Translations under genes and position numbers: made by a program | Shown: piece after piece, positions 35,726 through 63,620 of the stretch | How the letters are laid out: every line of letters begins with the position of its first letter | Position numbering within the stretch: the stretch's first letter is position 1 | Source of the DNA: an uncultured Caulobacterales bacterium | GTDB taxonomy: Bacteria; Pseudomonadota; Alphaproteobacteria; Caulobacterales; Caulobacteraceae | NCBI GenBank assembly: GCA_903900155.1 | Contig: CAIUMD010000025.1 | Span: 22,458-86,457 of the forward strand | Direction: 5' to 3' | DNA length: 64,000 bases | The notes under the pieces: generated by a model | The model's database searches: none | Told to the model about the DNA's origin: nothing | What the model saw: only the letters and a program-made list of their open reading frames with translations

Positions 35726-35744
35726 GGGCAGGGGAGCGTCGACG

Positions 35745-36680: not shown

Positions 36681-36695
36681 GAAGGAAACCAAGAC

Positions 36696-37433: not shown

Positions 37434-37434
37434 A

Positions 37435-38271: not shown

Positions 38272-38395
38272 GGCGGCAAATTTCGGCGCCCGTCGGGACA
38301 AGTCCCCGGACGCTCGCGCGATACGCTGGATCGGATACGGTCCTGACCAACAAGAGACGCGGGACCTCCCGCGCGGAGCATAGGATGGAACGCCC

Positions 38396-39724: not shown

Positions 39725-39746
39725 GACCTTTTCGAGGACCCGATAG

Positions 39747-40193: not shown

Positions 40194-40220
40194 TCCGCGC
40201 TCCAGAAGAGAGGTCGACCG

Positions 40221-41932: not shown

Positions 41933-41933
41933 C

Positions 41934-46889: not shown

Positions 46890-47729
46890 TCAGGCGGCCG
46901 GCAACGCCTTGCGAACAGTCTCGAACTCCGTACCGTAGGATCGCGTGAACGCCATGTCCTGGAAGATGCAGCCTTCGACCGTGATGTCCTTGAGCAGGGT
47001 GGATGGCCACCCCTTGCCGGGCCCCGCCGGAGCGCGCTCGATCGGGATCGATCCGAAACTCAGGGTCCCCGTTCCGTGGATCGGACGGGAGAAATCGGTG
47101 TCGTCGAAGGTCAGGGACAACAGGTCCGCGCCGGGCTCGCCGCCGACGTACATCCCGGTGTAGGGCGCGTCCTCCACGCGTTTCACGCCATCCAGCACGC
47201 CCTGGAAACTCAACAGCGAAAAGCCGTACTGCTGGACGTCGAGATGGAACGGCACCGGCGAGCCCTCCGCCACCAACTTGCGGTCCTGCTCGAACATGTA
47301 GGTCATTTCGGCGTCGGCCCATCGCTTGACGCCGACCAGGGTCGAGCCGATCCCCCAGGGGAGGCTTTCCCACATCAGGATATTGCGCTGGCGCGGACCG
47401 AACTTTGGCGTGGTGGCCATGGTCGATATGCCGATCTGCAGGCCGCTGGCGTGAGGCCCCGCAGGCGGATAGCCCTTCGACGTTCCTCCCTTTTTACGCT
47501 GGGCCTTGATGAAGGCGCGGTGCGGATTCACGGCGGTCAGTCCCGGCGGCATGAAGGCGTTCAGGTCGGTCGAGGTCGTGAACATGATGTTCATCGTCTC
47601 CCCATACTCGCCAGGAACCTTCAGAGGGACCGCGTCCGAGGCCGGAGCCCGGTCCGCCGGGATCTGCGCCGAAGCGCGCGCGGCCGCGAGGCCGAAGACT
47701 CCGCCCAGGATGAGATCACGTCGCTGCAT
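46890..47729 (-). CDS. Tat-signal protein, acetoacetate-decarboxylase-family-like (paralogue 2)
   Basis: 279 aa. MQRRDLILGGVFGLAAARASAQ twin-arginine signal. The block order resembles the ADC beta-cone family (tentative). About 60-65% identical to the upstream ORF by hand alignment. Confidence 0.6.
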   Translation of the reverse strand: MQRRDLILGGVFGLAAARASAQIPADRAPASDAVPLKVPGEYGETMNIMFTTSTDLNAFMPPGLTAVNPHRAFIKAQRKKGGTSKGYPPAGPHASGLQIGISTMATTPKFGPRQRNILMWESLPWGIGSTLVGVKRWADAEMTYMFEQDRKLVAEGSPVPFHLDVQQYGFSLLSFQGVLDGVKRVEDAPYTGMYVGGEPGADLLSLTFDDTDFSRPIHGTGTLSFGSIPIERAPAGPGKGWPSTLLKDITVEGCIFQDMAFTRSYGTEFETVRKALPAA

Positions 47730-47849: not shown

Positions 47850-48701
47850 TCACAGCCGTGAACGCCCGTTGCCCGGCAGAGCCTTGCGCACGGTCTTCAT
47901 CTCGCCGCCGTATGTCCGGGTGAACGAGAAGTCCTGGAAGACGCATCCTTCGACGTGGATGTCTTTCAGCAGCGAGGCCGACCAGCCCTTGCCAGGTCCG
48001 GGGGGCCCTCGATCGGCCGGATTATCGCCAAAGCTCAGCGTTCCGGAGCCGTACACCGGATGGGAAAACTCGGAGGCGTCCAGGGTCAGGGCCGTGAGAT
48101 CCTGACCAGGATCGCCGCCCACGTAGAAGCCCGGATAGGCCGGATGCTCAACCCGCTTCACCCCGTCGAGCGCGCCGGCGAAGCTCATCAGCGAATGACC
48201 GTCCTGCTCGACGGTGATGTAGATCGGAACCGGCGTGCCCTGCGCGACGAGCTTGTGGTCCAGCTCGAAGACCTGCGTCATCTCCACCTTGCCCCATCGC
48301 TTGACGGCGAGCAGCGTCGAGCCGACCGCCCAGGCGCGATTTTCCCACATCAGGATGTTGCGATGGCGCGGCCCGAACTCCGGCGTGGTGGCCATGGTGG
48401 TGATGCAGATCTGATCGTACTGGGCGAAGGCCGCCGGCATCTGATCAGCCTCCGGCGAGCGCAGCTTTACGCGCTCGGCCTTGATGAAGGCGCGATGAGG
48501 ATCCACGGCCGTCAGCCCCGGCGGCATGAAGGCGTTCAGGTCCGTCGACGTGGTGAACAGGATCTCCATCGTCTGACCGTAGTTGCTCGGGATGTAGGGC
48601 TTGGACGCCTTGGCTGGAGCGCCGGCGTAGGCGTTCTGAGCCGCAGCGCCGGCCGCGGCGAGACCGAGCGCGCCGCCCAGAACCAGATCGCGTCTATTCA
48701 T
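47850..48701 (-). CDS. Tat-signal protein, acetoacetate-decarboxylase-family-like (paralogue 1)
   Basis: 283 aa. MNRRDLVLGGALGLAAAGAAAQ signal. Shares FTTSTDLNAFMPPGLTAV.PHRAFIKA, TMATTP.FGPR.RNILMWE and GTLSFG...GPGKGW..LLKDI.VEGC.FQD with the downstream paralogue. Confidence 0.6.
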   Translation of the reverse strand: MNRRDLVLGGALGLAAAGAAAQNAYAGAPAKASKPYIPSNYGQTMEILFTTSTDLNAFMPPGLTAVDPHRAFIKAERVKLRSPEADQMPAAFAQYDQICITTMATTPEFGPRHRNILMWENRAWAVGSTLLAVKRWGKVEMTQVFELDHKLVAQGTPVPIYITVEQDGHSLMSFAGALDGVKRVEHPAYPGFYVGGDPGQDLTALTLDASEFSHPVYGSGTLSFGDNPADRGPPGPGKGWSASLLKDIHVEGCVFQDFSFTRTYGGEMKTVRKALPGNGRSRL

Positions 48702-48746: not shown

Positions 48747-50015
48747 CTAGGCCTCGACGGCCGAGGACGACGCCAGTGAACCCGGGATCGAAGGCGTCGC
48801 GGGCCAGACAGGACGCCAGGCCAGCGACGCGAACAGCGCCGCGCCGCCGGCGAACAGCACCGCGCCTCCCCAAAGGGCTGGCTGATAGGCGCCGGTCCGG
48901 TCGTAGATCGCGCCCATGATCGGCGCGCCCAATCCATTGCCCAGGCTGAACATGGCGAAGAGGCAGCCATAGATCTGGCCATAGGCTCGCAGTCCGAAAT
49001 GACGCGCGGCGAAATAGGACAGGAAGTCGATCTCGGCGCCGGCGGCTAGGCCCAGGAGCAGCACCGCGACGGTCAGCGCCGCGCGATCGGCGCCGCAGGT
49101 CGCCAGGATCACCGCGGCCGCCACGGGCGCGATCAGGGTCAGCCCCGCCACCAGCGCGGGCGGGAAACGATCGAGCAGCGCCCCGACCACGATCCGGCTC
49201 ACGAAGACGGCCAGACCCATCGTTCCGGCGATCCCCGCCGCCTGCGCGGGGGCCAGTCCCCGGTCGGTGAGCATGGGGACTAGGTGGATGATGGTCCCGC
49301 TCTGCGCGGTGATCAAAAGCAGGACCCCGATCGCCAAGGTCCAGAAGGCGCCGGTGCGAAGCGCCTCGGCCAAGGTCAGGCCCGACAGCGCCAATTTCGG
49401 GCCTTCGCCGCCATGTTTCGGCGCGCGCCCTAGCAGCAGGATGACCGCCGGGAAGACAACCAGGGCGGAAAATCCCGCTATGCCCAGATAACCGGCGCTC
49501 CATCCCCGGTGCGTGATCAGCCACTGAACCGCCGGCACGCCGACGACGCCGGCCGTCGCGCTTCCCAGCAGCGTCAGGCCCAGCGCCAGGCCGCGGGCCT
49601 TGACGAACCGCTGGCTAACCGCGCGGGTCCAGCTGACGGGCGCGGTCGCGCATCCCAGCACGGCCACGCCCAGGCATCCGGCATAGAAGGTCCAGACGTC
49701 CGGCCCGACCCGCGACATCAGGACGAAAGCGAGCGCCGCCCCGATCAGCGACGGACCCGCCACGCGCCGCACGCCCCACCGATCGATCATCCACCCGACC
49801 AGGGGCGCGCACACGACGGTGCCCAAGGTGATGAAGCTCATCCCCAGCGTAATCTCGCCCCGCGTCCATCCGAACGCGGCGTTCAGAGGCTTCACGAACA
49901 GGCCGAAGGTATAGAAAGCCAAGCCCGTGAGACCGGCGCAGGCGCCGAGCGCGCTGGCTAGGATCGTCGTCCAACCCGATCGAAATTCGCTGCTGGCGGT
50001 CGTCATCAAACGCAT
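48747..50015 (-). CDS. MFS transporter
   Basis: 422 aa with about 12 hydrophobic segments. It lies 45 bp upstream of the ADC-like pair on the same strand. Confidence 0.88.
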   Translation of the reverse strand: MRLMTTASSEFRSGWTTILASALGACAGLTGLAFYTFGLFVKPLNAAFGWTRGEITLGMSFITLGTVVCAPLVGWMIDRWGVRRVAGPSLIGAALAFVLMSRVGPDVWTFYAGCLGVAVLGCATAPVSWTRAVSQRFVKARGLALGLTLLGSATAGVVGVPAVQWLITHRGWSAGYLGIAGFSALVVFPAVILLLGRAPKHGGEGPKLALSGLTLAEALRTGAFWTLAIGVLLLITAQSGTIIHLVPMLTDRGLAPAQAAGIAGTMGLAVFVSRIVVGALLDRFPPALVAGLTLIAPVAAAVILATCGADRAALTVAVLLLGLAAGAEIDFLSYFAARHFGLRAYGQIYGCLFAMFSLGNGLGAPIMGAIYDRTGAYQPALWGGAVLFAGGAALFASLAWRPVWPATPSIPGSLASSSAVEA

Positions 50016-50304: not shown

Positions 50305-51129
50305 ATGGAGAGAGGTGTTCCGATCCGCTCGGTCAGCCGTAGCTTGGCGGTTCTTCAGGTCATCAACGCAGCCGGCTCGATGTCGCTGATGGAGATCGCG
50401 CGGGCCGTGAAGGTGCCCTACGCGACCGCGGCGCGTCTTGTGCTCACCCTGCTGCATGAAGGGATGATCGAGAAGGAGCCCGGCCGGAAGAACTACCGGC
50501 CGACCATGCTCGTGCAATCCCTGGCCAGCGGCTACAATGACCATAGCCACTTGGGCGCGGTCGCCCGCCAGCACATCGTGGACCTGACCAACAAACATGG
50601 CTGGCCGGTGGCGGTTTCGACCCGGTTCGGCATGAACATGATCGTGCGCGAATGTACGCACACGCTCTCGCCCTACACCTTGTCGACCTACTATCCGGGC
50701 TTCGTCTATCCCCTCCTGCAGTCCGCCGCCGGCCTTGTCCACCTGGCCTTCTCCAGTGAGCGTGAGCGGGACCTGAGCCTGCTGGATCTGACGGCTTCGG
50801 GCGATCATGACCGCACGGCGCTGGGCGCCTCGGAGGCCGCCTTGGAGGACATCCGCGCCAAGGGCTACGCCACGCGCGGGCGCAACCGCTTCACGGTGCC
50901 CGAGGGCAAGAACTCGGCGATCGCGGCGCCGATCTTCCACCAGGGCCGCCTGTGCGGCACGCTGGCCCTCATCTTCCTGGCGTCGGCGACGCGGATGGAC
51001 AAGGCCGTCGAGCTCTGCGCGCAGGACGTCGTCGACACGGCCCGCGCCGTCAGCCAGGACCTCGATCGCCTCGATGCGAACGCAGGCCGGCGCGGCCCCT
51101 TCGAGGAGAACATCCGCGCCGTCGGCTAG
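50305..51129 (+). CDS. IclR family transcriptional regulator
   Basis: 274 aa. N-terminal wHTH SVSRSLAVLQVINAAGSMSLMEIARAVKVPYATAARLVLTL and a C-terminal effector domain. Confidence 0.88.
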   Translation: MERGVPIRSVSRSLAVLQVINAAGSMSLMEIARAVKVPYATAARLVLTLLHEGMIEKEPGRKNYRPTMLVQSLASGYNDHSHLGAVARQHIVDLTNKHGWPVAVSTRFGMNMIVRECTHTLSPYTLSTYYPGFVYPLLQSAAGLVHLAFSSERERDLSLLDLTASGDHDRTALGASEAALEDIRAKGYATRGRNRFTVPEGKNSAIAAPIFHQGRLCGTLALIFLASATRMDKAVELCAQDVVDTARAVSQDLDRLDANAGRRGPFEENIRAVG

Positions 51130-51162: not shown

Positions 51163-52092
51163 CTATGCGTCCCCGGCGGCCTTTTTCCAGGCGTCCGCGA
51201 TCTGGCTTGCGGTGGCCGACCAGACCCCAGCATCCGCGCCCAGGGCGCCGAGCGCCCCGCGCAGGGCCCAGATGCGGAAAGGCTGCCCCGAGACATAGGG
51301 CGTCAGGCTGAAGCCCAGCACCTGTCCCCCGAAACGGGGCGCCTCTTCCTTGGTGAACCGCATGGCTTCCAGAATCTGATCGGCCCATTCGGCTTCGGTC
51401 TGACGCCGGTCGCTCAGCAGGACCCGGTCGTCCAGCTCCGTCGACAACGGTACGGCGATCACTTCGCGCGAAGCGGTCTTCATCGGCACGGGCAGGCTGT
51501 CCTGCTCCCAGTCCAGGCAGACGTCGAAACCGGCTTCGGCGATCAAGTCGAGCGTTTCGAACGACTGTTGTCGCGCGGGGCTCATCCAGGTGCGCGGCGT
51601 CAAGCCGGCCTTGTCGAAGGCCGTCCGCGTCTGCTCGACCCATTGGCGCTCGACGCCGGCGTCCAGGCCCGACCAGTGGATGTGATCGGTGTCGACGCCA
51701 TAGGCGGCGATCTCGTGCCCGTCCTCGATCAGCGCCTCGATCAAAGGCCGCACGCGCTCCAGCAGGACCGCGTTGATCGGAACGGTCGCCTTCAGACCCG
51801 CCGCCTTTAGTTCGCGCAGGATGCGGAAGATCCCGACACGGTTGCCGTAGTCCCGCGTCGTGAAATGACGCAGGTCCGGATAGGGCGTCACCATGGCGCC
51901 GGGATGCTTGAAGGGCTTGCCCGCCGGATTGAGCATATGGAACTCGAGCGGCGTGACGATCAGACAGGCTGCGGCCGCCCGTCCCGGCCAGGCGATCGGC
52001 GCGCGTTCACACGACGACCGCCAGGGATAGCGCGGCTGGTCGGCGCCGTAGGCGCGATGCGGATAGGCCAGGTATTCGTCAGGAACCGGCAT
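51163..52092 (-). CDS. Polysaccharide deacetylase-fold hydrolase (PuuE/allantoinase-like)
   Basis: The ATG at 52092 (MPVPDEYLAYPHRAYG...) overlaps the upstream gene by 14 bp; TTG at 52119 is an alternative. ...RDYGNRVGIFRIL... resembles the PuuE-like family. Confidence 0.8.
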   Translation of the reverse strand: MPVPDEYLAYPHRAYGADQPRYPWRSSCERAPIAWPGRAAAACLIVTPLEFHMLNPAGKPFKHPGAMVTPYPDLRHFTTRDYGNRVGIFRILRELKAAGLKATVPINAVLLERVRPLIEALIEDGHEIAAYGVDTDHIHWSGLDAGVERQWVEQTRTAFDKAGLTPRTWMSPARQQSFETLDLIAEAGFDVCLDWEQDSLPVPMKTASREVIAVPLSTELDDRVLLSDRRQTEAEWADQILEAMRFTKEEAPRFGGQVLGFSLTPYVSGQPFRIWALRGALGALGADAGVWSATASQIADAWKKAAGDA

Positions 52093-53041
52093 GGGCGGCC
52101 TCGGTTGATGTGAACCCAAAGCCGCCGGTGGCGAGGCCGCGGGCGGCCACGTCGTCGAGGGTCTGGTCGAAAAACTGCTCGCGGTAGACTCCGGCGATCT
52201 CCGAGGCCGTGGTGATCCACACGTCGTCGCTGTTCTCGGAGATGTACTTCAGCGCCTCGGCGAACGGGCCCAGGCGATGCGGCTGGCTGACCAGGTACGC
52301 ATGCAGCGGAATGCACATGACCACGCCGCTCTGCTGACTTTCCTCGAGCAGTTGATCGAAGTGCCGCTTCAGCACGTCGGCGTAGCGCTGCGGCGCCATG
52401 GCCAGCGAGCCGTAGGTGATCACGTCATTGACCTCGAGCGAATAGGGCATCGAGATCAGCTTCCCGGTCCGGGTCTTCACCGGCTGGGGCTGGTCGTCCT
52501 GAAAGAGGTCGCAGGTGTACCAGAAATCGTACTCCGCCAGCAGGTCCAGGGTGCGTTCGGTATGGGTCAGGGCCGGCGCCAGATAGCCTCGGATGCGCTG
52601 GCCGGTGGCCGATTGGATCGAGCGGATCGAATCCTCGATGATCGCCCGCTCCTGGGCCTCGTCCATGTTGTACGAGTAGCGCGTGTTGTAGATGCCGTGG
52701 GAGAAGAACTCCCAATCGCGCGCGACGCACGCCTCGATGATCTCTGGATGATGGTCGATCAAAGCCGTCGACAGCGAGATCGAACCGCGCATGCCGTATT
52801 TGTCCATCAACTCCATCAGCCGCCAATGTCCGACGCGGTTTCCCCAGTCGCGCTGGGAGTAGCCGACGACGTCGGGGGACGGCCGAGGCCAGCCCGGACG
52901 CGAGACGTTCCTGGGCGGATCGAATTCATAGAACTCGATATTGGGCGCGATCCAGAACGCCAGCTTCTTGCCGCCCGGCCAAACGATGGGCGGACGGTCC
53001 TTGTAGGGCCAATAATCGTAAAGGTTGGGATCGGCGAGCAT
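52079..53041 (-). CDS. Polysaccharide deacetylase-fold hydrolase (PuuE/allantoinase-like), second copy
   Basis: 320 aa. ...RPPIVWPGGKKLAFWIAPNIEFYE...RDWGNRVGHWRLMELMD.... Paralogous to the downstream gene. Confidence 0.8.
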   Translation of the reverse strand: MLADPNLYDYWPYKDRPPIVWPGGKKLAFWIAPNIEFYEFDPPRNVSRPGWPRPSPDVVGYSQRDWGNRVGHWRLMELMDKYGMRGSISLSTALIDHHPEIIEACVARDWEFFSHGIYNTRYSYNMDEAQERAIIEDSIRSIQSATGQRIRGYLAPALTHTERTLDLLAEYDFWYTCDLFQDDQPQPVKTRTGKLISMPYSLEVNDVITYGSLAMAPQRYADVLKRHFDQLLEESQQSGVVMCIPLHAYLVSQPHRLGPFAEALKYISENSDDVWITTASEIAGVYREQFFDQTLDDVAARGLATGGFGFTSTEAAHAGS

Positions 53042-53917
53042 CTATTGCGCGGCCTCTAGCGTAGGTGAAAAACGTTGCCCCTGGCGGACGATGTCGTCCA
53101 AGCCGATGCGCGCGTTCACGCCCCTCAGGTCCGTCATCGGTCCGGCGAACGCGGCCGTCGAGCCGGTGGCCTTCAGCGTCGCCAGCAGCGCCTCCAGGTG
53201 TGGGACCAGGGCGCGAACGAGCGCGCCGGGCGTGATGACCAGCGCAAAGCCCAGGGCCGTGAGGTCTTCGGCCGTGCGGATCGGCGTCGAGCCCCCCTCG
53301 ACCATGTTGGCCAGAAGCGGAATCCGCTTGCTGAATTGGACCGCGACCTGGCGCATCTGCGCCTCGGACTGCGGCGCCTCGACGAACAGCACGTCGGCGC
53401 CGGCTTCGCGGTAGAGCTCCGCCCGCGCCAGGGCGGCCTCGAAGCCCTCCACGGCGATGGCGTCGGTGCGGGCGACGATCAGGGTTTCCGACGACAGACG
53501 GGCGTCGACGGCGGCCTTGATCTTGCCGACCATGACCTCAGCCGGTTCGACAGTCTTGCCCAGTAGGTGGCCGCAGCGCTTGGGCGAGGTCTGATCCTCG
53601 AGCTGGATGGCGTTCGCCCCTGCACGCTCCAGGACGCGCACCGTCCGCTGCACGTTCAGGGCGTTGCCGAAGCCGGTGTCTGCGTCAACGATGAGCTTGA
53701 GGCCCACGCGATCCCGGATGCGCGCGGTCACGTCGGCGACCTGCTCCAGGCCCAGCAGGCCGATGTCGGGCCGCCCCAGCTGGGTGTAGGCGATCGAGGC
53801 GCCGGATAGAAAGGCCGCCTCGAACCCGGCCTGCTCGACCAGCAGCGCCGTCAGCGGGTCGTAGACGCCCGGCGCGACAAGGGCGGGGCCCGTACTCAGG
53901 CGGTGCTTCAAACTCAT
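53042..53917 (-). CDS. Isocitrate lyase / PEP mutase superfamily lyase (methylisocitrate-lyase / dimethylmalate-lyase-like)
   Basis: 291 aa. Signature IQLEDQTSPKRCGHLLGK (K-R-C-G-H), ...DADTGFGN.... Its stop abuts the next gene's start. Confidence 0.85.
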   Translation of the reverse strand: MSLKHRLSTGPALVAPGVYDPLTALLVEQAGFEAAFLSGASIAYTQLGRPDIGLLGLEQVADVTARIRDRVGLKLIVDADTGFGNALNVQRTVRVLERAGANAIQLEDQTSPKRCGHLLGKTVEPAEVMVGKIKAAVDARLSSETLIVARTDAIAVEGFEAALARAELYREAGADVLFVEAPQSEAQMRQVAVQFSKRIPLLANMVEGGSTPIRTAEDLTALGFALVITPGALVRALVPHLEALLATLKATGSTAAFAGPMTDLRGVNARIGLDDIVRQGQRFSPTLEAAQ

Positions 53918-54405
53918 GCTCGGGTCCCGTTGAAACGGCGCTTCAGATGCTCGGTCAGCCCGCCATCGCGGATTACCGCCAACAGGTGCGGCGGGAGCGC
54001 TTGGAAGGCGTAGGCGCGGCCTTGCGTGCGATTGTCCGCCCGCCCCTGTTCGAGATCGAAGCCGATCTCGTCGCCGGCCGCGATCTCGCCGGCCTCGGGC
54101 AGCACCAGCGCCGGCAGGCCGATATTGATGGCGTTGCGATAGAAGATGCGCGCGAACGACTGGGCGAAGACCGCCGCCACGCCCAGCAGCTTCAGCGAGA
54201 TCGCCGCCTGCTCGCGAGACGACCCCATGCCGAAGTTCGCCCCCGCGACGACGATGTCCCCTCGCCTCACCACGGAAGCAAACTGAGGATCGACGGCCTC
54301 AAGGCAGAAGCGCGCCATCTCGCGAGGCTCCAGCTTCATGGCGTGCCCCGGCGCCAGCAGATCCGTGTCGATATTGTCACCGAAGACGAAGGCCCGCCCC
54401 ATCAT
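53914..54405 (-). CDS. Aconitase-family hydratase small subunit (LeuD type 2-like)
   Basis: 163 aa. GDNIDTD and GANFGMGSSREQA motifs. 4-bp overlaps on both sides. Confidence 0.85.
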   Translation of the reverse strand: MMGRAFVFGDNIDTDLLAPGHAMKLEPREMARFCLEAVDPQFASVVRRGDIVVAGANFGMGSSREQAAISLKLLGVAAVFAQSFARIFYRNAINIGLPALVLPEAGEIAAGDEIGFDLEQGRADNRTQGRAYAFQALPPHLLAVIRDGGLTEHLKRRFNGTRA

Positions 54406-55691
54406 CGCGCTCCTTGCGTCATCAGCAGACGAGGATCGACGATGGATCCGGCCACAGCGGCGGCGGCGACCGAATAGGGCGATCCCAGATAGACCTGGGC
54501 CTCCCCGCTTCCCATCCGCCCCTTGAAATTGCGGTTGGTCGAGGAGATGCAGATCTCACCGTCCGCGAGAACGCCGCCGCCATAGCCAGCGCAGGCCCCG
54601 CATCCGGAAGGCATCATCAAGGCGCCTGCGGTGATCAGGTCGCTCAGGACGCCTTCACGCGAGGCCGTCTCGAAAGTCTCCCGCGACGCGGGCGCGATCA
54701 GCAACCGCACGCCGGGCGCCACCTTGCGACCGCGCAGGACTTCGGCCGCCATGCGCAGGTCGTCGACCTTGGCCCCCATGCAGGCCCCGATATAGGCCTG
54801 GTCGATCCTGACGCCCGAATAGTCGCCGACCGGGCCGGTGTTGCCGGGCGAGTGCGGCGCCGCGATCTGCGGTCCCAGGTCCTCAGCCCGAAACCGCCAG
54901 ACCCGCTCGAACACGGCGTCCGGGTCAGAGGCCAGGGCCCGCGCGGCGCTTTCGTTCTCGACCGGACGCCCCACCCTGGCCAGATAGTTGAAGGTCACCG
55001 CGTCGGGCGCGACCACGCCGGTCTCGGCGCCCAACTCGGCGGCCATGTTGCACAGCACCATGCGGGCGTGCATCGACATCGCTTCCACGGCGTCGCCGGC
55101 GAATTCCACGGCGCGGAAGCCGTTGTCCATCCCGACCTCGCGGGTCAGGTGCAGCATGACATCCTTGGCGACCACGAAGGGCGCGAAGGCGCCGGACCAT
55201 TCGATACGGATCGTCGAGGGAACCGACAGCCAAGTCTCGCCCGTCGCCACGATGGCCGCCATGTCCGTGGCCCCGTAGCCGGCGGCGTAGGCGCCGAACG
55301 CGCCGGCCATCGGCGTGTGACTGTCGCCGCCCGCGATGAACGCCCCAGGCCGGATCAGGCCGGCGTCGGGCAGCACCAAATGGCTGATGCCGACCATATC
55401 GAACAGGTTCTCAATGCCCTGTTCGCGAGCGAAATCGCGGGTGAGCTTCAGGAAACCAGCCGTCTCGGCGTCGGCGGCCGGCGCATAGTGGTCGTTGACC
55501 AGGGCGACCTTGTCGGGATCCCAGACCCCTACCCCCAGCGCGTCGAGGATCGGCTTCCACCGCCTGGCCCCGGAGGAGTCGTGGGCGAAGGCCAGGTCCA
55601 CCTTGGCGACGACCAGCTGCCCAGGCGTCACGCCAGGCAGGCCAGCCGCGCGGGCGATCACCTTCTCCACCAATGTCGCGCCGCGTGTCAT
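54402..55691 (-). CDS. Aconitase-family hydratase large subunit (LeuC type 2-like)
   Basis: ATG at 55691 after GGAAGG. About 429 aa. Fe-S cysteine regions IGACMGA and MPSGCGACAG. Confidence 0.85.
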   Translation of the reverse strand: MTRGATLVEKVIARAAGLPGVTPGQLVVAKVDLAFAHDSSGARRWKPILDALGVGVWDPDKVALVNDHYAPAADAETAGFLKLTRDFAREQGIENLFDMVGISHLVLPDAGLIRPGAFIAGGDSHTPMAGAFGAYAAGYGATDMAAIVATGETWLSVPSTIRIEWSGAFAPFVVAKDVMLHLTREVGMDNGFRAVEFAGDAVEAMSMHARMVLCNMAAELGAETGVVAPDAVTFNYLARVGRPVENESAARALASDPDAVFERVWRFRAEDLGPQIAAPHSPGNTGPVGDYSGVRIDQAYIGACMGAKVDDLRMAAEVLRGRKVAPGVRLLIAPASRETFETASREGVLSDLITAGALMMPSGCGACAGYGGGVLADGEICISSTNRNFKGRMGSGEAQVYLGSPYSVAAAAVAGSIVDPRLLMTQGAR

Positions 55692-55754
55692 CCGCCCGCC
55701 TTCCGCCTTTGTCGTGAATTGCGCGCGGCTCACTCGCAGAGCCGCGTCCGGCGC

Positions 55755-56450
55755 TCAGCGCCGTTCGAGCCAGTCGATGACGTCCTGGGCCGTGACCACG
55801 TCCGCGTACTTGAGCTGGAGGTCGGTGAGGTTGGCGTAGTGATAGCTCTCATGCTTGTCGGCGACGCATTCCTCGGGAACGATCGTGCGATAGCCGTGCG
55901 AAAGGCTGTCGACGCCGCTGGCGCGGATACAGCCGGACGTCGAGCCGCCGGTGAGCACCACGGTGTCGATCTTGTGCCAGGTGAGATAGCTGGGCAGCGG
56001 CGTCTCGAAGAACACCGACGGCATGCGCTTGGTGAACACTAGGTCGACCGCGTGGTCGATCTCGACGCGCGGATCGAAGGCGTGGCGCTCGCTGTCGTAC
56101 TTGATGTTCTGCAGGCTGTCGGGCGTGTCGGTGCGCGCGCCCCAGACGCCCGCGTCGCCGCCGTCGGCCTTGTAGGCGACCCGAGTCCAGATCACGGGCA
56201 TGCCCTTGCTGCGCGCCAGGGCCGACAATTGGTTGGTGAACGCGATCTGCCGCGGATCGGTGACGTAGGCGCTCTTTGGAAAGAGGTCCGGCCGCGTGTA
56301 GGCCTGCTGGAAGTCGATATTGACGATGGCCAGCTTCTGGCCAAATCCGAACCGGGCGCGCGCGGGATTGGCCTTGACCGCCTCATAGAGTTCGCGAGCG
56401 GTCTTGTTCTCCCGGACCATGGTCGGCTCGAATTTCAGGTCTGTCGTCAC
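55755..56450 (-). CDS. Isochorismatase-family amidohydrolase (carbamoylsarcosine/maleamate amidase-like)
   Basis: GTG at 56450 with GGAG 6 nt upstream. ...LAIVNIDFQ... (Asp), catalytic Cys in LTGGSTSGCIRASGVDS. Confidence 0.85.
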   Translation of the reverse strand: MTTDLKFEPTMVRENKTARELYEAVKANPARARFGFGQKLAIVNIDFQQAYTRPDLFPKSAYVTDPRQIAFTNQLSALARSKGMPVIWTRVAYKADGGDAGVWGARTDTPDSLQNIKYDSERHAFDPRVEIDHAVDLVFTKRMPSVFFETPLPSYLTWHKIDTVVLTGGSTSGCIRASGVDSLSHGYRTIVPEECVADKHESYHYANLTDLQLKYADVVTAQDVIDWLERR

Positions 56451-56522
56451 GACGTACTCCGGGATTGAGATTCATGGGCAGGATAGAAAATCGCCCCACC
56501 GCCGAGGGGGCCGTTCACCGGC

Positions 56523-56570: not shown

Positions 56571-57665
56571 TCAATGACCGGGCGGGGATTTCCGACGAAG
56601 GAAGGCCTGAGCCCTGAGGTCGGCGTTTTCGCGAACGTCCTCATAGAACAGGCCGACGTCATGCATGTGCATGCTGCCGTTCATGTGAGGGCTGGACGCC
56701 GTCAGCGGTTTGAGACCGAGCGCCGCCGAGGGCTCAACAGTGAGCACCCCGTCTTCGCAGCGCGCGCTCACCGCATGGGGAACGATCGCCTGCATGGGGC
56801 CGGCGTCGGGCGCGCCCGGAACAGCGCCCTTGGCGACGCTCGACGACGCGGCGGGGCGAGACCGGTCGAACGTCAGCGGATTGATGCAGAGCAGCGCCTT
56901 GCCGGCGTTGTCGCCCCAGCGCTGGATATAGCTCCTCTGGCTGAAGGCGGCGAAATCCGAGCGGTCGCCGATCGGCAGCATGGAGTTCCACTGCACGACG
57001 CAGCCGGTCTGGCTGGGCGTGTCGCAGATCTTCACCGACTTGAAGGTGCGGCCGAAATCGCCCTCGGTCAGACCCATGCCGATGACATAGGCGGCCACCA
57101 GGCGCTTCTGCAGCGGCGTGCCGTCGATACGGTCCTCGAGCAGCTTCCTGACGTGATACGCGCCCTGGCTATGGCCGACCAGAATGAACGGTCGCCCCCC
57201 GTTGTCGTGCGCCAGATAGTGGTCAAAGGCGGCCAGAACGTCCTTGTAGGCGAAGTCGATGGCCACCTGCCGCGCAGCGGGATCGCCAGGTCCGGCCGCC
57301 GCCTGGCGATAGCGTGGCGCGTAGATCCGGCAACAGCGATTGAAAGCGCCGGCCTGTCTGGCGACGACGCTGCCGTCGGTCCAGGCCTGAAGCTTCGGAT
57401 CGAAGACCTCTCCCGTGGCGTGTTCGCGGCTGAAGTCGGTCGTCGGATGGACGTAGAAGACGTCCGCCTGCCGCAACTCCCGCCGGGGCGAGGCCCCGGG
57501 CGCCACGACAGCCGCCGCGCTCTCGGCCCGCGCCGTCGCGGCCCAGTTGGCGGGATCCTTGTAGTCGAGCGCTGACTGCGCCGTCGCGACCGTCGGCGCA
57601 ACGATCGAGAACACCGCCCCGATCGCCGCCAGCCCGCGCCAAGGAGTGGGGTTCATCGTGTTCAT
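56571..57665 (-). CDS. Secreted alpha/beta hydrolase, DUF3089-like (lipase/esterase-type)
   Basis: 364 aa. Signal peptide ...VAPTVATAQS, nucleophile elbow VGHSQGA. The family assignment comes from overall pattern and is moderate. Confidence 0.7.
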   Translation of the reverse strand: MNTMNPTPWRGLAAIGAVFSIVAPTVATAQSALDYKDPANWAATARAESAAAVVAPGASPRRELRQADVFYVHPTTDFSREHATGEVFDPKLQAWTDGSVVARQAGAFNRCCRIYAPRYRQAAAGPGDPAARQVAIDFAYKDVLAAFDHYLAHDNGGRPFILVGHSQGAYHVRKLLEDRIDGTPLQKRLVAAYVIGMGLTEGDFGRTFKSVKICDTPSQTGCVVQWNSMLPIGDRSDFAAFSQRSYIQRWGDNAGKALLCINPLTFDRSRPAASSSVAKGAVPGAPDAGPMQAIVPHAVSARCEDGVLTVEPSAALGLKPLTASSPHMNGSMHMHDVGLFYEDVRENADLRAQAFLRRKSPPGH

Positions 57666-57740: not shown

Positions 57741-60170
57741 CTAGTAGGCCGTGTGGAAGCGCACACCGATGCGGCGGGGCGTCGGCAACACCGCCGCGAC
57801 GATCGGCCGGTTGTTGTTGGCCTGATCGAAGGCCGGCGAGGTGCTGAGATATGCGCGATTGTCGAACAGGTTCTCGACGAAGAACTCGACCTTCGACTGC
57901 TCGTACTGCGCGCCGATCCGCAGGTTCACGCGCTTGGTGTCCGGCGTCTTGTAGAGGTTGGCCGGCTCGCCGTACTGACCGCTCTTGTAGAAGGCGTCCG
58001 CATGGAAATAGCCGTCCACCTTGGCGCTGAGCTGACGCGTGTAGTCCATGCTGATGTTGGCGCTATACTTGGAGCCGTAGGCCAACTGGTTGCCCTTGAA
58101 CAGGTCGAGCGGCGCCGTCCCAGGCGCATAGCCCAACAAGGTCGCGCTGTTGGTGTTGGTGTATTTGAGAATCTTGGTGTCGTTGATCGAACCGCCGCCG
58201 CTAAAGGTCAGGGATGGCGAGACGCGAAGATAGAGATTGCCTTCGACGCCCTTCAGGTCGGTGGCGCCGTTGTTGCTATACATGTTGGTCGCCAGCGTGC
58301 CGGGAATGCCGGTCAGCGCCGGGTTGACGATGAACAGGCTCTGCAGAATCAGCTGGTCGCGCCACTGAGCGTAATAGGCGCCGATGTCGAGCTGCAGACG
58401 CCCGTTGAACAGTTCGCCCTTATAGCCGACGTCGTAGCTGGTGATACGCTCGGGCCGCGTCCCGACCCCGCCGTCGAGCGTCGAGCTGAGATAGTTCTGC
58501 AGCGCGGGCGAATAGCTCACATAGGCGGTATTGAAGAGGCCGGGATTGGAGCCCTTGGCGAAGGTCGCGAAGACCTGATGGTGCGGGGCGAACTTGTACT
58601 GGATGATCGCCCGGGGCAGGAATTCCTTGGTCTTGTCCTTGAGGCCGGCGATCGGCGCTTCAACGGGTTCGTTCGAGGCGTCGAGCTTGCGGCTGTAGCC
58701 GATGGTCGTGGAGTCCTGGTAGCGGACTTCGGCGTTCAGAATGATCTGGGACGTCAGGTCGAAACTGGCGCTGGCGAAGGCCGCGTAGGTGTTGTTGCGA
58801 TAGGTCGGACCGGTCGGCGAGACCGTGAAGACGTAGCTCGGAGCGGAGATGCCCATGCCGGTGTAGCCCCGGCGGGAATATGAATAGTTCACCCCGACGA
58901 CGCCGCGCAGCCGCTTGGACTGATCGCTGGAGACGCGGAACTCCTGGTTGAAGGCCATGCCATAGCCGTAGACATCGTTGGGCTGGCGCAGCGCCGGCGC
59001 GGTGCCGGGATTGGAGTTGTCGGTGATGACGTCGACACGGGAGTCGTTGGCCGCCGTCACCGAGCTGAAGGTCAGCCCCGTGTCCGGCATGGCGTAGCTA
59101 ATGTTCAGCGTGCCGACCCGAACCTCCGTGGCCGAGCCCCCGTGATCCAGGCCCAGGTCCTTGTAGCGGACCCCCGCCGCGGGTGAGTGAAGCGAGTCGA
59201 GGAAGGACTTCGGCAGAGGATCGGGATTGGGACTGTTGGGATAGGCCAACGGCAGGGTGCCGCAGATCAGCCGGGTCGCCGGGGATGGGCTGCAGTTGAA
59301 GGTCGACGCCGGGAATTTGACGAAGGACTGGTAGCCGTCGTCCATCTTCACATAGGCGCCGAACGCACGGACGGTCAGGTCTTCGGTCGGGGTGAACGCC
59401 AGCTCGCCAAGAACATTCTTCGAAGACTGGGCGCCGTACTTGTAGCCCGGCGAAAGCGGCGAACTGTAGTAGCCGTCCGTATCGTAGACGCGGCCGGTGA
59501 TACGGCCCGAGAGCTTTCCGGGGATGATCGGTCCTTCGACCGTCGCCTTAAGGTCGGTCCAGTTGTTGGAGCCATAGAGCGCGTCCACCGACACCTTGAA
59601 CTCGTCGCCCGGCGCCTTGGTGATGATGTTCACCGCGCCGCCAAAGGTCGCGCGGCCGAAATAGGCGCTCTGCGGCCCCTTGATGATTTCGACCTGGGCC
59701 ACGTCGGAAATGCCGTCGATCAGGCCCGAGGCGGCCAGCGGCGCGCCGTTGATGAAGACCGTGGTGGTCTGGCTATAGGTGGAGCCGGGCACCATCCCGC
59801 GAATGATGACGGTCTGCTGGGCGCGGTTCGTCGTGCTGTTGCCGAAGCTCGTGATGTTCAGCGACGGGGTGTAGTTGGCGACGGCGATCAGGCTGTCGAC
59901 GCCCTTCTTCTCCATCGAGGCTGCGGACATGGCGGTGATGGCCAGCGGCACGTCCAGCAGGGTTTCGGATCGCTTGCGGGCGGTCACGACGATTTCCGAC
60001 ATGTCCGTCGCGCCCGAATTGACCGACTGGCCGGAGTTGTCCGCGGGCGCGGCCTGTGTGGGCGCCGTTTGGGCCAGAGCCGTTTCGGGCGAAGCGGCCA
60101 TCAAGGCGACGAACATCACCGCCGGAGCAGCTGAACAGAACAGTCCTTGACGCTTGGAACGCGAATGCAT
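57741..60170 (-). CDS. TonB-dependent receptor
   Basis: The ATG at 60170 gives MHSRSKRQGLFCSAAPAVMFVALMAASPETALAQ. Plug SEIVVTARKR...IIKGPQSAYFGRATFGGAVN. C-terminal ...RRIGVRFHTAY. Confidence 0.9.
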   Translation of the reverse strand: MHSRSKRQGLFCSAAPAVMFVALMAASPETALAQTAPTQAAPADNSGQSVNSGATDMSEIVVTARKRSETLLDVPLAITAMSAASMEKKGVDSLIAVANYTPSLNITSFGNSTTNRAQQTVIIRGMVPGSTYSQTTTVFINGAPLAASGLIDGISDVAQVEIIKGPQSAYFGRATFGGAVNIITKAPGDEFKVSVDALYGSNNWTDLKATVEGPIIPGKLSGRITGRVYDTDGYYSSPLSPGYKYGAQSSKNVLGELAFTPTEDLTVRAFGAYVKMDDGYQSFVKFPASTFNCSPSPATRLICGTLPLAYPNSPNPDPLPKSFLDSLHSPAAGVRYKDLGLDHGGSATEVRVGTLNISYAMPDTGLTFSSVTAANDSRVDVITDNSNPGTAPALRQPNDVYGYGMAFNQEFRVSSDQSKRLRGVVGVNYSYSRRGYTGMGISAPSYVFTVSPTGPTYRNNTYAAFASASFDLTSQIILNAEVRYQDSTTIGYSRKLDASNEPVEAPIAGLKDKTKEFLPRAIIQYKFAPHHQVFATFAKGSNPGLFNTAYVSYSPALQNYLSSTLDGGVGTRPERITSYDVGYKGELFNGRLQLDIGAYYAQWRDQLILQSLFIVNPALTGIPGTLATNMYSNNGATDLKGVEGNLYLRVSPSLTFSGGGSINDTKILKYTNTNSATLLGYAPGTAPLDLFKGNQLAYGSKYSANISMDYTRQLSAKVDGYFHADAFYKSGQYGEPANLYKTPDTKRVNLRIGAQYEQSKVEFFVENLFDNRAYLSTSPAFDQANNNRPIVAAVLPTPRRIGVRFHTAY

Positions 60171-60470: not shown

Positions 60471-61697
60471 CTAGTGCGCGGCGCGAAGGGGCGAGCCGAA
60501 AGCATCCTCGAACAGGCCGAGGAGATAGCCGCCGATCGGGATGGCGGAGGTCGCCGCCGGTGACGGGGCGTTGCAGACATGAAGACTACGCAGGCCGCGA
60601 TGCACCAGGAAATCGTGCACTAGGGCTCCATCCTTCGAGACAGCCTGGGCGCGCACGCCGGCGGGATAGGGTTGCAGGTCCTTGAGGCTCAGCTCGGGAC
60701 AATATTTCCGACATTCGGCGAGATAGCCGGATTTGAAGATGGAGTTCTCCATCTCCTTCAGCCCCGAGCGGGCGTTCGCGGCGATCACCTTCCAGAAGCC
60801 CGGGAACGCCGCCATCTCGGCCAGGTCCCGCAGGTTGACGTTTGCCCAGCCATAGCCCTCGCGGGCCAGCGCCAGCACCGCGTTCGGGCCCACCGTCACG
60901 TAGCCGCCGATCATGCGCGTCAAATGCACGCCCAGGAACGGCAGGTCCGGATCCGGGACCGGGTAGACGAGATGGCGGACGATGTCGTCCTTCGATGCTG
61001 GCAGGCGGAAATACTCGCCGCGGAACGGAATGATCTGGAAGTCGGGATCCAGGCCGCACATCCGCATCAGACGATCCGCCATCAGTCCGCCGCAGACGAT
61101 CGCGCGCCCGGCGCGAACCACGCCGCGTGTGGTCTCGACGACGACCTCGTCAGCGGTTTCCCGCATCCCGACCACTTCGCTGCCGCAGAGGATCGTCCCG
61201 CCCTTGTCGCTCACGATCCCGGCCATCTTGCGCGTGATCGCCGGATAGTCGGCGATGCCGCTGGATCGGACCAGGATCGCCGCGTCGCCGACGATGCGCG
61301 GCTCCAGGCGATTGAGCTCGGCTCGGTCCAACCGCTCCGGCGCCAAGCCATTTTCGACGCAGCGCGCCTGCAGGGCGTCCAGCCGCGTGACCTCCAGATC
61401 GTTGGTGGCGACGATCAACTTGCCGCACTGGTCGAAGGGCAGGTCGTGCTCACGGCAGAACGCGATGGTCGCCGCCGCGCCCTCCCGGCAGAACCTGGCC
61501 TTCAGGCTGCCAGGCGCGTAGTAGACGCCGGCGTGGATCACGCCGCTGTTGTGCCCCGTCTGGTGGGTCGCGAGCGCGGCTTCCTTTTCCAGGACGGTCA
61601 CCGAGACGCCAGGAAAACGCTCGACCAACTGCATCGCGGTCGACACGCCGACAATGCCGCCGCCGATGATGACGATGTCCGTCTTCAGATCGTTCAC
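60471..61697 (-). CDS. lhgO: L-2-hydroxyglutarate oxidase/dehydrogenase (FAD)
   Basis: 408 aa. DIVIIGGGIVGVSTA FAD motif, ...HQTGHNSGVIHAGVYY.... GTG start overlaps the csiD stop (GTGA). Confidence 0.88.
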   Translation of the reverse strand: MNDLKTDIVIIGGGIVGVSTAMQLVERFPGVSVTVLEKEAALATHQTGHNSGVIHAGVYYAPGSLKARFCREGAAATIAFCREHDLPFDQCGKLIVATNDLEVTRLDALQARCVENGLAPERLDRAELNRLEPRIVGDAAILVRSSGIADYPAITRKMAGIVSDKGGTILCGSEVVGMRETADEVVVETTRGVVRAGRAIVCGGLMADRLMRMCGLDPDFQIIPFRGEYFRLPASKDDIVRHLVYPVPDPDLPFLGVHLTRMIGGYVTVGPNAVLALAREGYGWANVNLRDLAEMAAFPGFWKVIAANARSGLKEMENSIFKSGYLAECRKYCPELSLKDLQPYPAGVRAQAVSKDGALVHDFLVHRGLRSLHVCNAPSPAATSAIPIGGYLLGLFEDAFGSPLRAAH

Positions 61698-62729: not shown

Positions 62730-63620
62730 ATGCTTGAGGCGCGCCAACTTCGTTATTTCGTCGCGGTCGCGGAACATCGGCATTTTGGTCGCGCCGCAGA
62801 CAGCTTGAACGTCGTCCAGTCCGCCGTCAGCGCCCAGATCAGCCAGCTCGAGGATCGTTTCGGCGTGCGGCTGCTGACCCGGGGCAAGCGCGCCGCCGTC
62901 GGTCTTACGGAGGCTGGCCGTCTCTTCCTGACCGAAGCCAAGGCAGCGTTGCAGTCGCTCGAGCGCGCGGAACAGATCGGCCGCCTGGCGGGACGCGGAG
63001 AGGTCGGCCGGGTCGAGATCGCCTATGTGGCGTCCGTCGCCATGACCGGTTCACTCGCCCGAATTCTCCGGCAGTTTCGACTGTCGCACCCCTTGGTCGA
63101 ACTAAGGGTGACGCCCATGGACACGCCCTCGCAGTTGGCCGCCCTGGCCCAGGGGCGCATAGACGTGGGCTTGATCCGGCCGCGCCTGGACTATCCGGCC
63201 GGCCTAGTGACGCAGGTGTTCCATGAGGAGCGACTGAGTATCGCCCTGGCGACCGGCCATCCGCTGACCGCCCATGCGCAGCTGACGGCGGCGGCGCTCG
63301 AAGGACAAGCGTTCATTATCCCGCAATTCGCCGAGGACGAGGGCTTCGCCGGCCATCTTTTGCACTTGGCTCAGGTGGGCGGCTTCGAGACACACACCGT
63401 CCATCGCGTGGGCGATTTCATAACCGCGCTCAGCATGGCCGCGGGCGGTTATGGCGTCGTCCTGGGTCCGGCTTCGATGGAGCGGTTCGCCATCGGCGGC
63501 CTCGTTTTCCGGGAGGCGTCGGATTTTACCGACCGCGTACAGTTGGCGGCGGCCTGGCGATCGGACGGCGCCTCGCCGAGCACTCGGGCCTTCGTCGAGG
63601 CCGCGATGCGTGAACCGTGA
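62730..63620 (+). CDS. LysR family transcriptional regulator
   Basis: 296 aa. N-terminal [38 protein letters not shown] plus a LysR substrate-binding domain. Confidence 0.9.

Follow-up and report, generated by a model that had tools for sequence, protein, structure and literature searches.

The 64,000-nucleotide stretch of DNA analyzed here, in the following called the window, derives from an uncultured Caulobacterales bacterium (assembly GCA_903900155.1, contig CAIUMD010000025.1, positions 22,458 to 86,457). Its minus strand carries, between positions 51163 and 56450, six head-to-tail genes which are the subject of this study. In their order of reading, they encode Iso (55755-56450; 231 amino acids (aa)), a cysteine amidase of the isochorismatase family (PF00857); a LeuC-like large subunit (54402-55691; 429 aa from the ATG at 55691; PF00330) and a LeuD-like small subunit (53914-54405; 163 aa; Aconitase_C); a PrpB-like lyase of the isocitrate lyase/PEP mutase (ICL/PEPM) family (53042-53917; 291 aa; PF13714); PD1, a PuuE-like protein with polysaccharide-deacetylase fold (52079-53041; 320 aa; PF01522); and its paralogue PD2 (51163-52092; 309 aa; Polysacc_deac_1). 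Protein families were annotated from 20.7 to 64 kb of the window, and statements on its gene content refer to this region. For comparison, 80 loci of different species were collected and their open reading frames (ORFs) clustered; 54 of these loci counted as long, and plasmid homologues were examined in addition.

The LeuC/LeuD and LeuD/lyase junctions overlap by 4 bp each, the PD1 start abuts the lyase stop (53042/53041), and PD1 and PD2 overlap by 14 bp, an arrangement as expected under co-transcription. These coordinates confirm in full the dense co-directional packing described in the original prediction, which had been made from the sequence alone. Iso and the LeuC-like gene are separated by 63 bp; a GGAAGG ribosome-binding site precedes the LeuC-like ATG, and the LeuC-like ORF extends to a GTG at 55733. 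Third-position GC of the six genes amounts to 0.83-0.89, well above the 0.67 of the DNA overall, and thus marks them as real genes. Nor is their arrangement a matter of chance, since the conservation of the gene neighborhood, whose inspection had been proposed together with the original prediction, revealed the same gene set in synteny in 28 of the 54 long loci, all from different species. A scan for sigma-70 promoters between 50 and 63.5 kb returned none, and terminator-like sites in the same region occurred at or below the shuffled expectation for intrinsic terminators. An Rfam scan of the window found no riboswitch, its sole match being a tRNA gene (12472-12544, minus strand).

Iso matches PF00857 with 95.5 bits (gathering score 27; E = 5e-27). 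Its best relatives in the PDB are N-carbamoylsarcosine amidohydrolase (CSHase, 7e-28), the maleamate amidase Ami (4L07, 1e-26) and NicF (3OT4, 2e-22), with whose Asp-Lys-Cys triad the residues D46, K141 and C174 of Iso align. All three residues are invariant in 56 orthologues, and C174 occupies the column of the Cys that was replaced by Ala in 4L08, a structure of maleamate amidase. By sequence, Iso belongs to the N-carbamoylsarcosine amidase/maleamate amidohydrolase clade of the isochorismatase-like cysteine hydrolases, and its putative substrate is an amide.

The LeuC-like protein matches Aconitase (PF00330) at 3e-90, the LeuD-like protein Aconitase_C at 8e-19. Both score above the cut-offs of short archaeal-type subfamilies, the former for NF001614 (503 vs 385) and the latter for TIGR02087, the "LeuD/DmdB family" (180 vs 109), and Cys304, Cys364 and Cys367 of the LeuC-like protein show the usual spacing of cluster ligands. 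As judged from these two scores and the three cysteines, the pair is a heterodimeric member of the aconitase superfamily of the LeuD/DmdB type. In contrast, the equivalog cut-offs for leucine biosynthesis are missed by far, by the LeuC-like protein (TIGR02083 (LEU2), 389 vs 610.65; TIGR00170, 234 vs 560) as well as by the LeuD-like protein (TIGR02084, 155 vs 245.85), and so are those of HacAB (NF040615 (HacA), 405.7 vs 550; NF040625 (HacB), 160 vs 230). The small-subunit loop determines substrate preference in this enzyme class (PMC7308503). In the LeuD-like protein this loop reads P-G-H-A-M-K-L; M23 and K24 are invariant in 43 orthologues, giving P-G-x-x-M-K as the loop of the short type. K24 aligns with the Arg of the YLRT loop in homoaconitase 2PKP, a position which is hydrophobic in the leucine enzymes. 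This Arg reportedly binds the distal carboxylate of homoaconitate (Jeyakanthan 2010).

The lyase matches PF13714 (PEP_mutase) at 6e-45 and stays below both PrpB equivalogs (TIGR02317, 266.5 vs 354.4; NF008455, 225 vs 353). In the PDB, it comes closest to the carnation petal death protein (4e-57), followed by several PrpBs (about 1e-51) and the fungal dimethylmalate lyase Dml (4e-45). Residues 113-117 form a KRCGH active-site loop, the motif of the PrpB type (PMC11982470). F178, I228, P230 and R235 are invariant in 42 orthologues, the first three aligning with F186, L234 and P236 of E. coli PrpB and R235 with a PrpB Arg in whose place the petal death protein has a Tyr. The F/L/P residues of PrpB reportedly form the pocket for the 2-methyl group (Grimm 2003). 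If this holds for the lyase, pyruvate would be its other product. According to family annotation, the window operon contains no prpC, prpD or prpE; in some other genomes, an MmgE/PrpD-family gene lies several genes away from the cluster.

PD1 matches PF01522 at 2e-10, and PuuE is the best NCBIfam model for PD1 and PD2, which both miss its cut-off widely (TIGR03212; 111.8 and 65, respectively, vs 424.6). In the PDB, PD1 finds PuuE (3CL6, 3e-25), 3S6O (7e-17) and HpPgdA (3QBU, 2e-7), and PD2 finds 3S6O (4e-13). PuuE is a metal-independent enzyme of polysaccharide-deacetylase fold with a Glu-His-Trp triad, for which Glu36 and His259 are proposed as catalytic; BpIH, a cyclic imidase of the PuuE family modelled as a homotetramer, is 91% identical to 3S6O (PMC11424739). 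A fungal cyclic imidase, HxnM, falls into the related HpPgdA/PuuE group of this fold, and the amidase HxnN acts next after it (PMC9304392). On sequence grounds, PD1 and PD2 share fold and family with these cyclic imide hydrolases (EC 3.5.2.16), and imidase activity is their putative function.

The two paralogues are 28% identical (E = 2e-35) and differ in their active sites. PD1 possesses the PuuE motifs SHG, PY..ND and LH and retains the catalytic Glu and two His of PuuE (E36, H115, H247); E36, H115, Y200, N205, D206 and H247 are invariant in 81 homologues. PD2, with E50, Y131, T135 and T264 at its site, keeps only the Glu and has lost both catalytic His. The position of Tyr131 is occupied by Tyr, His or Ala in its homologues, and that of T264 is never His in 74 homologues. 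The two genes are adjacent in 54 of 54 long loci. Natural PD1-PD2 fusions of 628-686 aa exist, with a PD1-like N-terminal half, a PD2-like C-terminal half and the same asymmetry. Because of this constant adjacency, occasional fusion and residue asymmetry, PD1 and PD2 probably constitute one heteromeric ring-opening hydrolase, composed of catalytic PD1 and a degenerate, non-catalytic PD2. PD1 is 75-90% identical across the 80 genome loci kept, its carriers being Caulobacterales, Parvularculales, Sphingomonas, a Bordetella metagenome-assembled genome (MAG) and several Dehalococcoidia MAGs.

At the level of protein families, the original prediction stands: an isochorismatase-family hydrolase with a catalytic Cys, aconitase-family subunits of the short type, a lyase with K-R-C-G-H signature, and two paralogous deacetylase-fold proteins were all recovered, the subunits scoring below the equivalogs of leucine-biosynthetic LeuCD and the lyase below those of PrpB and outside a prp context. 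Paralogy of the latter holds, while their reading as two separate enzymes gives way to that of one probable heteromer.

Across the related loci, PD1-PD2 and an amidase make up a core found in Alphaproteobacteria, Betaproteobacteria, Actinomycetota and Dehalococcoidia, and also on plasmids. An amidase of some family lies near PD1-PD2 in 50 of the 54 long loci and belongs to the isochorismatase family in 42. An amidase-signature (AS) amidase takes its place in Caulobacter loci lacking Iso and on Agrobacterium pAt plasmids, and an asparaginase does so on plasmid pLDW-10 of Arthrobacter crystallopoietes; marine loci carry an extra CN-hydrolase. In one case, Iso is fused to PD1 (protein P0098). Swappable primary-amide hydrolases beside a PuuE-type ring opener fit the sequence from cyclic imide via half-amide to acid and NH3, and fit a hydantoin-to-ureide scheme less well. 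The former sequence is established for fungal HxnM/HxnN (PMC9304392).

To this core, two alternative modules are joined. Module A, the short LeuCD plus PEPM lyase of the window, occurs in 28 of 54 long loci. Module B occurs in 10 of 54 and consists of a long LeuCD, a family-III CoA-transferase and an HMG-CoA-lyase-like enzyme; the loop of its long-type small subunits reads P-S-R-E-M-K, with the M-K of the short type, in eight of nine cases and E-I-R in the remaining one. Either module would add water to an unsaturated dicarboxylate before cleaving the resulting hydroxy acid, A directly and B as a CoA ester. The PD1 closest to that of the window (L004, 90% identity) accompanies module B, and plasmid pJE1 of Sphingomonas sp. 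JE1 (L086, 4993-17555) carries both modules around a single Iso-PD1-PD2 set. One side of the pJE1 locus comprises a CoA-transferase and a LeuC' and LeuD', the divergent side an HMG-CoA-lyase-like gene, Iso, PD1, PD2, LeuC, LeuD, the lyase, a Zn dehydrogenase and an acyl-CoA synthetase. The six genes of the original prediction form a putative transcription unit in the window; the functional locus is larger, and its hydratase/lyase part is exchangeable.

The surroundings of the core vary further. In six Dehalococcoidia MAG loci (L034, L040, L041, L043, L048, L065) and in L001, where Iso and PD1 are fused, with a PD1 about 80% identical to that of Caulobacterales, Iso-PD1-PD2 adjoins a molybdenum (Mo) hydroxylase, two Amidohydro_2 genes and one Amidohydro_3 gene, with neither LeuCD nor lyase. 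These findings suggest horizontal transfer of the core and a different upstream pathway. On pLDW-10 (L087, 6231-17392), distant PD1 and PD2 (40% and 30% identity) follow a three-subunit hydroxylase of the xanthine-dehydrogenase type and are themselves followed by the asparaginase, an SRPBCC protein, an adenylate-forming enzyme, an NADPH:quinone oxidoreductase and XdhC. This cluster looks like an uncharacterized N-heteroaromatic pathway, possibly of the isonicotinate/citrazinate type. Since the Dehalococcoidia and Arthrobacter cores adjoin Mo hydroxylases, the PD1-PD2 family as a whole certainly handles more than one ring.

Other neighbors recur as well. Six loci have a flavocytochrome-c/TcuA-like FAD enzyme immediately next to PD1 or LeuC. 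If it works like tricarballylate dehydrogenase, this enzyme could turn a succinate-type acid into one of the maleate type. A side module of an MmgE/PrpD-family protein, a PaaK-like CoA ligase, an amidase-signature amidase and an enoyl-CoA hydratase is present in two gene orders near the cluster in Caulobacter (L006, L009, L014, L016, L022-L025) and marine MAGs (L061, L078-L081). A further set comprises an FAD aromatic-type monooxygenase, a 385-aa methyltransferase-domain protein, a 109-aa protein, an Asp/Glu-racemase-superfamily protein, an aldehyde dehydrogenase and a short-chain dehydrogenase/reductase (SDR), and is found in Brevundimonas, Glycocaulis and Terricaulis (L019, L042, L044, L046, L050, L053, L055, L057, L066, L077, L082). 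It may be an upstream pathway feeding the core.

Genes of glutarate catabolism are linked to module A in other genomes and to the operon in the window. A gcdH gene, whose product resembles solved glutaryl-CoA dehydrogenases (1e-161), is located one gene away from the LeuC-like gene in several arrangements, mostly in divergent orientation with a short spacer between. Of the 28 module-A loci, 17 carry it, and of the 26 other long loci, none (Fisher p = 5e-7, not corrected for phylogeny). In Brevundimonas, a CoA-transferase gene lies next to gcdH. Burkholderia plantarii plasmid p1 (L085/L090, record 17110-35656) carries the whole pathway between IS481- and IS6-family transposase genes. This stretch comprises a CoA-transferase, GcdH (60% identical), the electron-transfer flavoprotein subunits alpha and beta, a porin, the lyase, a TcuA-like FAD enzyme, LeuD, LeuC, a GntR regulator, Iso, PD1, PD2 and a transporter of the major facilitator superfamily (MFS). 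Located on a conjugative plasmid, the stretch looks like a mobile catabolic island.

In the window itself, glaH/csiD (61694-62629, minus strand; 451 bits vs equivalog cut-off 333) and lhgO (60471-61697, minus strand; 586 vs 299) overlap by 4 bp and lie upstream of the operon in the same direction; a LysR regulator gene (62730-63620) is divergent from glaH/csiD. GlaH/CsiD and LhgO convert glutarate via L-2-hydroxyglutarate to 2-oxoglutarate, the hydroxylation route of glutarate catabolism. Glutarate is therefore our tentative choice for the acid product of the lyase, with a chance that falls somewhat short of even. As a product, it would imply a 2-carboxyethyl substituent on the maleate, and together with pyruvate it would make the lyase substrate a homologue of 2-methylisocitrate that is longer by one carbon. 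Conversion of glutarimide to glutarate was considered as the whole story and rejected, as GcdH tracks the hydratase/lyase module and not the PD1-PD2-amidase core.

With a little better than even confidence, we propose that the six genes constitute a catabolic pathway for the cyclic imide, or the half-amide, of a 2,3-disubstituted maleic acid. In a first step, PD1 with its degenerate partner PD2 would act as a metal-independent PuuE-type hydrolase and open the ring to a maleamate-type half-amide, from which Iso would release NH3 to leave a substituted maleate. The LeuCD-like [4Fe-4S] hydratase would then add water across the maleate double bond, and the PrpB-like lyase would split the resulting 2-hydroxy acid into pyruvate and a carboxylic acid, most likely glutarate. 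GlaH/CsiD and LhgO could serve as the glutarate sink here, and the adjacent GcdH in many other genomes. The proposal builds on family membership, catalytic residues, synteny, module exchange and linkage to glutarate genes, which were observed directly; substrates, order of steps, the PD1/PD2 heteromer and the glutarate product are what we infer from them. The same series, from the hydrolysis of a ring or amide through deamidation and the hydration of a maleate derivative to C-C cleavage, had already been put forward in the original prediction, and all computational tests run on the sequences fit it. Cleavage to pyruvate plus a short acid fits as well, the acid now being specified as probably glutarate.

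Several observations weigh against this proposal. Iso is about equally close to N-carbamoylsarcosine amidase and to maleamate amidases. In PD1, Asn119 replaces the triad Trp of PuuE and BpIH, and the chemistry may differ. Lys24 as a carboxylate-binding residue and F/I/P as a methyl pocket are putative roles, based on what Jeyakanthan 2010 and Grimm 2003, respectively, reportedly found. The window contains no imide-making gene. The linkage to gcdH is not phylogenetically independent, many of the loci being from Caulobacter or Brevundimonas, and it is absent at module-B loci. In the window, a LysR regulator of its own accompanies csiD-lhgO, and a 300-bp gap, a TonB receptor gene and a DUF3089 gene lie between this pair and the operon, such that their adjacency could be a coincidence. 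Finally, in 16 of 54 long loci the PD1-PD2-amidase core comes without either module, so the product of the core need not always be a maleate.

Among the alternatives, the same chemistry on a simple substrate survives best, and we consider it rather unlikely. Here, maleamate, citraconamate or their imides, e.g., from a lower pyridine pathway, would yield maleate or citraconate. Addition of water would give D-malate or (R)-citramalate, and cleavage would then produce acetate together with glyoxylate or pyruvate, the glutarate neighbors being coincidental. The resemblance of Iso to the maleamate amidases Ami and NicF speaks for such a substrate, as does the absence of gcdH near any module-B locus. 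Module B matches an enzyme pair reported from Chloroflexus (Friedmann 2007), in which a succinyl-CoA:(R)-citramalate CoA-transferase is combined with an (R)-citramalyl-CoA lyase resembling HMG-CoA lyase. The nearest solved lyase, the petal death protein, is reported to cleave (2R)-alkylmalates. However, GcdH, gcdH with CoA-transferase, or glaH-lhgO adjoins module A in at least five arrangements, including that of the betaproteobacterial plasmid island, and an invariant Lys in the recognition loop would be unexpected for a hydrogen or methyl substituent. Moreover, pyridine genes for ring hydroxylation or ring cleavage (NicAB, NicC, NicX, NicD) were not found in the window. A complete nic, pic or Eubacterium barkeri nicotinate cluster was rejected on the absence of the remaining genes.

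A six-membered ring as substrate appears improbable. According to this explanation, 2,6-dihydroxypyridine-4-carboxylate (citrazinate, from isonicotinate) or the corresponding reduced dioxopiperidine would be opened by PD1/PD2 and deamidated to cis-aconitate or tricarballylate, and a dedicated aconitase-like hydratase and isocitrate-lyase-like enzyme would deliver succinate and glyoxylate. It gains from the order of genes on pLDW-10, where PD1/PD2 follow the Mo hydroxylase and precede asparaginase, adenylate-forming enzyme and NADPH oxidoreductase, an order resembling the isonicotinate pathway of Mycobacterium INA1, and from the Mo hydroxylase and Amidohydro_2/3 genes adjoining the Dehalococcoidia cores. 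The TcuA-like FAD enzyme of six loci and of the B. plantarii island would suit it, too, and Lys24 could bind the gamma-carboxylate of aconitate. On the other hand, the glutarate genes are left unexplained, and a Mo hydroxylase was found neither in the window nor in most module-A loci. The lyase motif is KRCGH of the PrpB type and not KKCGH of the ICL type, with the residues aligned to the reported methyl pocket of PrpB kept, and cis-aconitate would need no dedicated enzymes. A literature search on isonicotinate and citrazinate returned nothing usable.

Still less probable is a role of PD1/PD2 analogous to that of hydantoinase or allantoinase, with Iso acting as N-carbamoyl amidohydrolase as in creatinine/N-methylhydantoin catabolism. 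An amino acid would then be formed, and the LeuCD-like pair and the lyase would serve a separate function within the operon. PuuE is indeed the closest characterized relative of PD1, the best PDB match of Iso is N-carbamoylsarcosine amidohydrolase, and in a Salipiger locus hydantoinase A/B genes are added. Yet the partner amidase may also be an asparaginase or AS-amidase, which argues against a ureido product and for a primary amide. Translational coupling joins hydratase and lyase to PD1 in the window, and 28 of the 54 long loci contain module A. Furthermore, the PuuE score of PD1 is much too low for the cut-off, and purine or creatinine genes are not found nearby. A genuine allantoinase was rejected on this score, the altered triad and the lack of purine-catabolic context. 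That leucine-biosynthetic LeuCD and methylcitrate-cycle PrpB merely chance to adjoin the hydrolases, as automated annotation of homologues as "3-isopropylmalate dehydratase" and "isocitrate lyase/PEP mutase family" would have it, is hardly credible and was rejected, as all equivalog cut-offs are missed widely, the operon lacks leuA, leuB, prpC and prpD, and the genes accompany PD1-PD2 on plasmids, including a transposase-flanked island.

For the proposed pathway of 2,3-disubstituted maleic acid derivatives, maleimides of the hematinic acid type are the best-fitting candidate substrate, albeit a doubtful one. Hematinic acid, 3-(2-carboxyethyl)-4-methylmaleimide, arises from the oxidative breakdown of haem, bilins and chlorophyll. 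It is possible, though unlikely, that the operon represents the missing bacterial route by which the monopyrrolic end-products of chlorophyll, haem and bilins, i.e., hematinic acid and alkyl-methyl-maleimides, are mineralized. PD1/PD2 would then open the maleimide, Iso would remove the nitrogen, and hydratase and lyase would turn "2-methyl-cis-homoaconitate" into pyruvate and glutarate. The methyl-ethyl and methyl-vinyl maleimides formed alongside might be taken by module B or, as on pJE1, by another set of hydratase and lyase, and the TcuA-like flavoenzyme might dehydrogenate saturated, succinimide-type analogues. Judging by their record titles, many carriers were sampled from plants, lichens, algae or cyanobacterial mats, which is compatible with a role in hematinic acid catabolism and no proof of it.

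The cluster is a real and widely shared bacterial operon that has not been characterized. Our searches of the literature collection used here gave no paper describing the gene combination, in line with the original prediction, which did not recognize it as a known pathway, nor any on bacterial catabolism of maleimides or hematinic acid. Each of its parts resembles established chemistry. In nicotinate catabolism, the aerobic maleamate amidohydrolase NicF and the dimethylmaleate hydratase DmdAB and 2,3-dimethylmalate lyase Dml of E. barkeri belong to the same enzyme families and catalyze the same reaction types as proposed here: a Cys amidase acts on maleamate, a LeuCD-type Fe-S hydratase on a dialkylmaleate, and an ICL/PEPM lyase yields pyruvate. 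In known organisms these steps are split over two pathways, whereas here they are combined in a single operon. Furthermore, Mo hydroxylase, NicC/X/D, enamidase and B12 mutase were not found in the window, a PuuE-like heteromer stands in place of oxygenolytic ring opening, and the product is apparently glutarate instead of propionate.

Imidase and half-amidase systems (HxnM/HxnN of Aspergillus nidulans, BpIH, Pseudomonas putida YZ-26) share the opening of an imide by a metal-independent PuuE/HpPgdA-type hydrolase, followed by an NH3-releasing amidase. Known imidases are described as single-gene enzymes, whereas here a catalytic and a degenerate paralogue are always paired or fused. PD1 has Glu-His-Asn in place of their Glu-His-Trp, and the products of the known imidase pathways, such as glutaramate and hydroxyglutaramate, need no hydratase or lyase. 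PuuE allantoinase shares with PD1 the fold, the motifs SHG, PY..ND and LH and the equivalents of Glu36 and His259; the differences lie in the scores far under cut-off, the replaced triad Trp, a PD2 without both His and the lack of a purine-catabolic context.

At the end of the methylcitrate cycle, where aconitase acts on 2-methyl-cis-aconitate and PrpB follows, a substituted cis-aconitate-type acid is likewise hydrated and a KRCGH lyase delivers pyruvate and a dicarboxylate. In contrast, the hydratase of the operon is of the LeuCD type and not AcnB or AcnD, the lyase falls below the PrpB cut-off, and PrpC, PrpD and PrpE are absent from the operon. The (R)-citramalate route of Chloroflexus shares the CoA-transferase/lyase pair of module B, which in the related loci adjoins a LeuCD-type hydratase. 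Module B is not present in the window, and where it occurs it is attached to the imide/amide hydrolase core. We know of no pathway that combines the chemistries of NicF, DmdAB/Dml, imidase/half-amidase and the end of the methylcitrate cycle. What is new is probably a catabolic pathway that joins chemistries already known, together with a novel, heteromeric kind of PuuE-type hydrolase.

The operon is flanked by candidate regulatory and transport genes. An IclR-family regulator (50305-51129, plus strand; HTH_IclR and IclR_C), convergent with PD2, keeps its position in close relatives (L004, L020, L092) and is likely the regulator of the operon. It is followed by an MFS transporter of the oxalate/formate and monocarboxylate type (48747-50015, minus strand; MFS_1 at 7e-33), for which SfMCT and OFA-family models are the top NCBIfam hits, none reaching its cut-off. 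An MFS gene also follows IclR in L092, and MFS genes flank the core in loci of B. plantarii, Agrobacterium and Caulobacter segnis. On the other side, a TonB-dependent outer-membrane receptor (57741-60170, minus strand; Plug and TonB_dep_Rec) lies upstream and co-directional, with only generic NCBIfam matches, none of them above cut-off. The MFS protein is a candidate inner-membrane importer, and both proteins together are possible uptake components. Between TonB receptor and Iso, a DUF3089 gene (56571-57665, minus strand; PF11288 at 8e-63) encodes an alpha/beta-hydrolase-like protein that begins with a signal-like segment. The genome and plasmid loci examined yielded no homologue, and the gene recurs only in contigs carrying the PD1 sequence of the window itself. 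After this gene, a weak terminator-like hairpin (56494-56507) was noticed, so that Iso may start its own transcript.

Two tandem paralogues without Pfam match (47850-48701 and 46890-47729, minus strand) carry twin-arginine signals and have a predicted acetoacetate-decarboxylase (ADC)-like fold. A Pfam search with both and a PDB sequence search with the 283-aa protein returned no match; its AF2 model (pLDDT 84) is matched in Foldseek by Swit_4259, MppR and Sbi00515 (E = 4e-13 to 1e-11). In total, 52 proteins of this family were found, as two to six tandem copies after IclR-MFS near the Iso-PD1-PD2 core, with six copies following IclR-MFS in L092 (6309-11707). The paralogues are a lineage-specific accessory; an exported protein of ADC fold is unusual. 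A second, unrelated-looking catabolic cluster at 34031-42848 (plus strand) comprises an aldehyde dehydrogenase, BKACE, an SDR, two Amidohydro_2 proteins, an MFS transporter, SnoaL_4, a 308-aa protein and an HpcH/HpaI aldolase.

If the proposed pathway is true, it constitutes a new, widespread and horizontally mobile route for the salvage of nitrogen and carbon, centered on a heteromeric PuuE-type hydrolase with a pseudo-enzyme subunit. One hydrolytic core would be combined with alternative downstream modules, either a CoA-independent or a CoA-dependent lyase. Thousands of genes that currently bear the annotation "polysaccharide deacetylase", "3-isopropylmalate dehydratase" or "isocitrate lyase/PEP mutase family" would thereby receive a function. 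The pathway would also provide a testable hypothesis for the bacterial disposal of substituted maleimides and could open the fate of small tetrapyrrole fragments to experiment. Should hematinic acid indeed be the substrate, dialkylmalate lyases such as the plant petal death protein would gain a physiological meaning.

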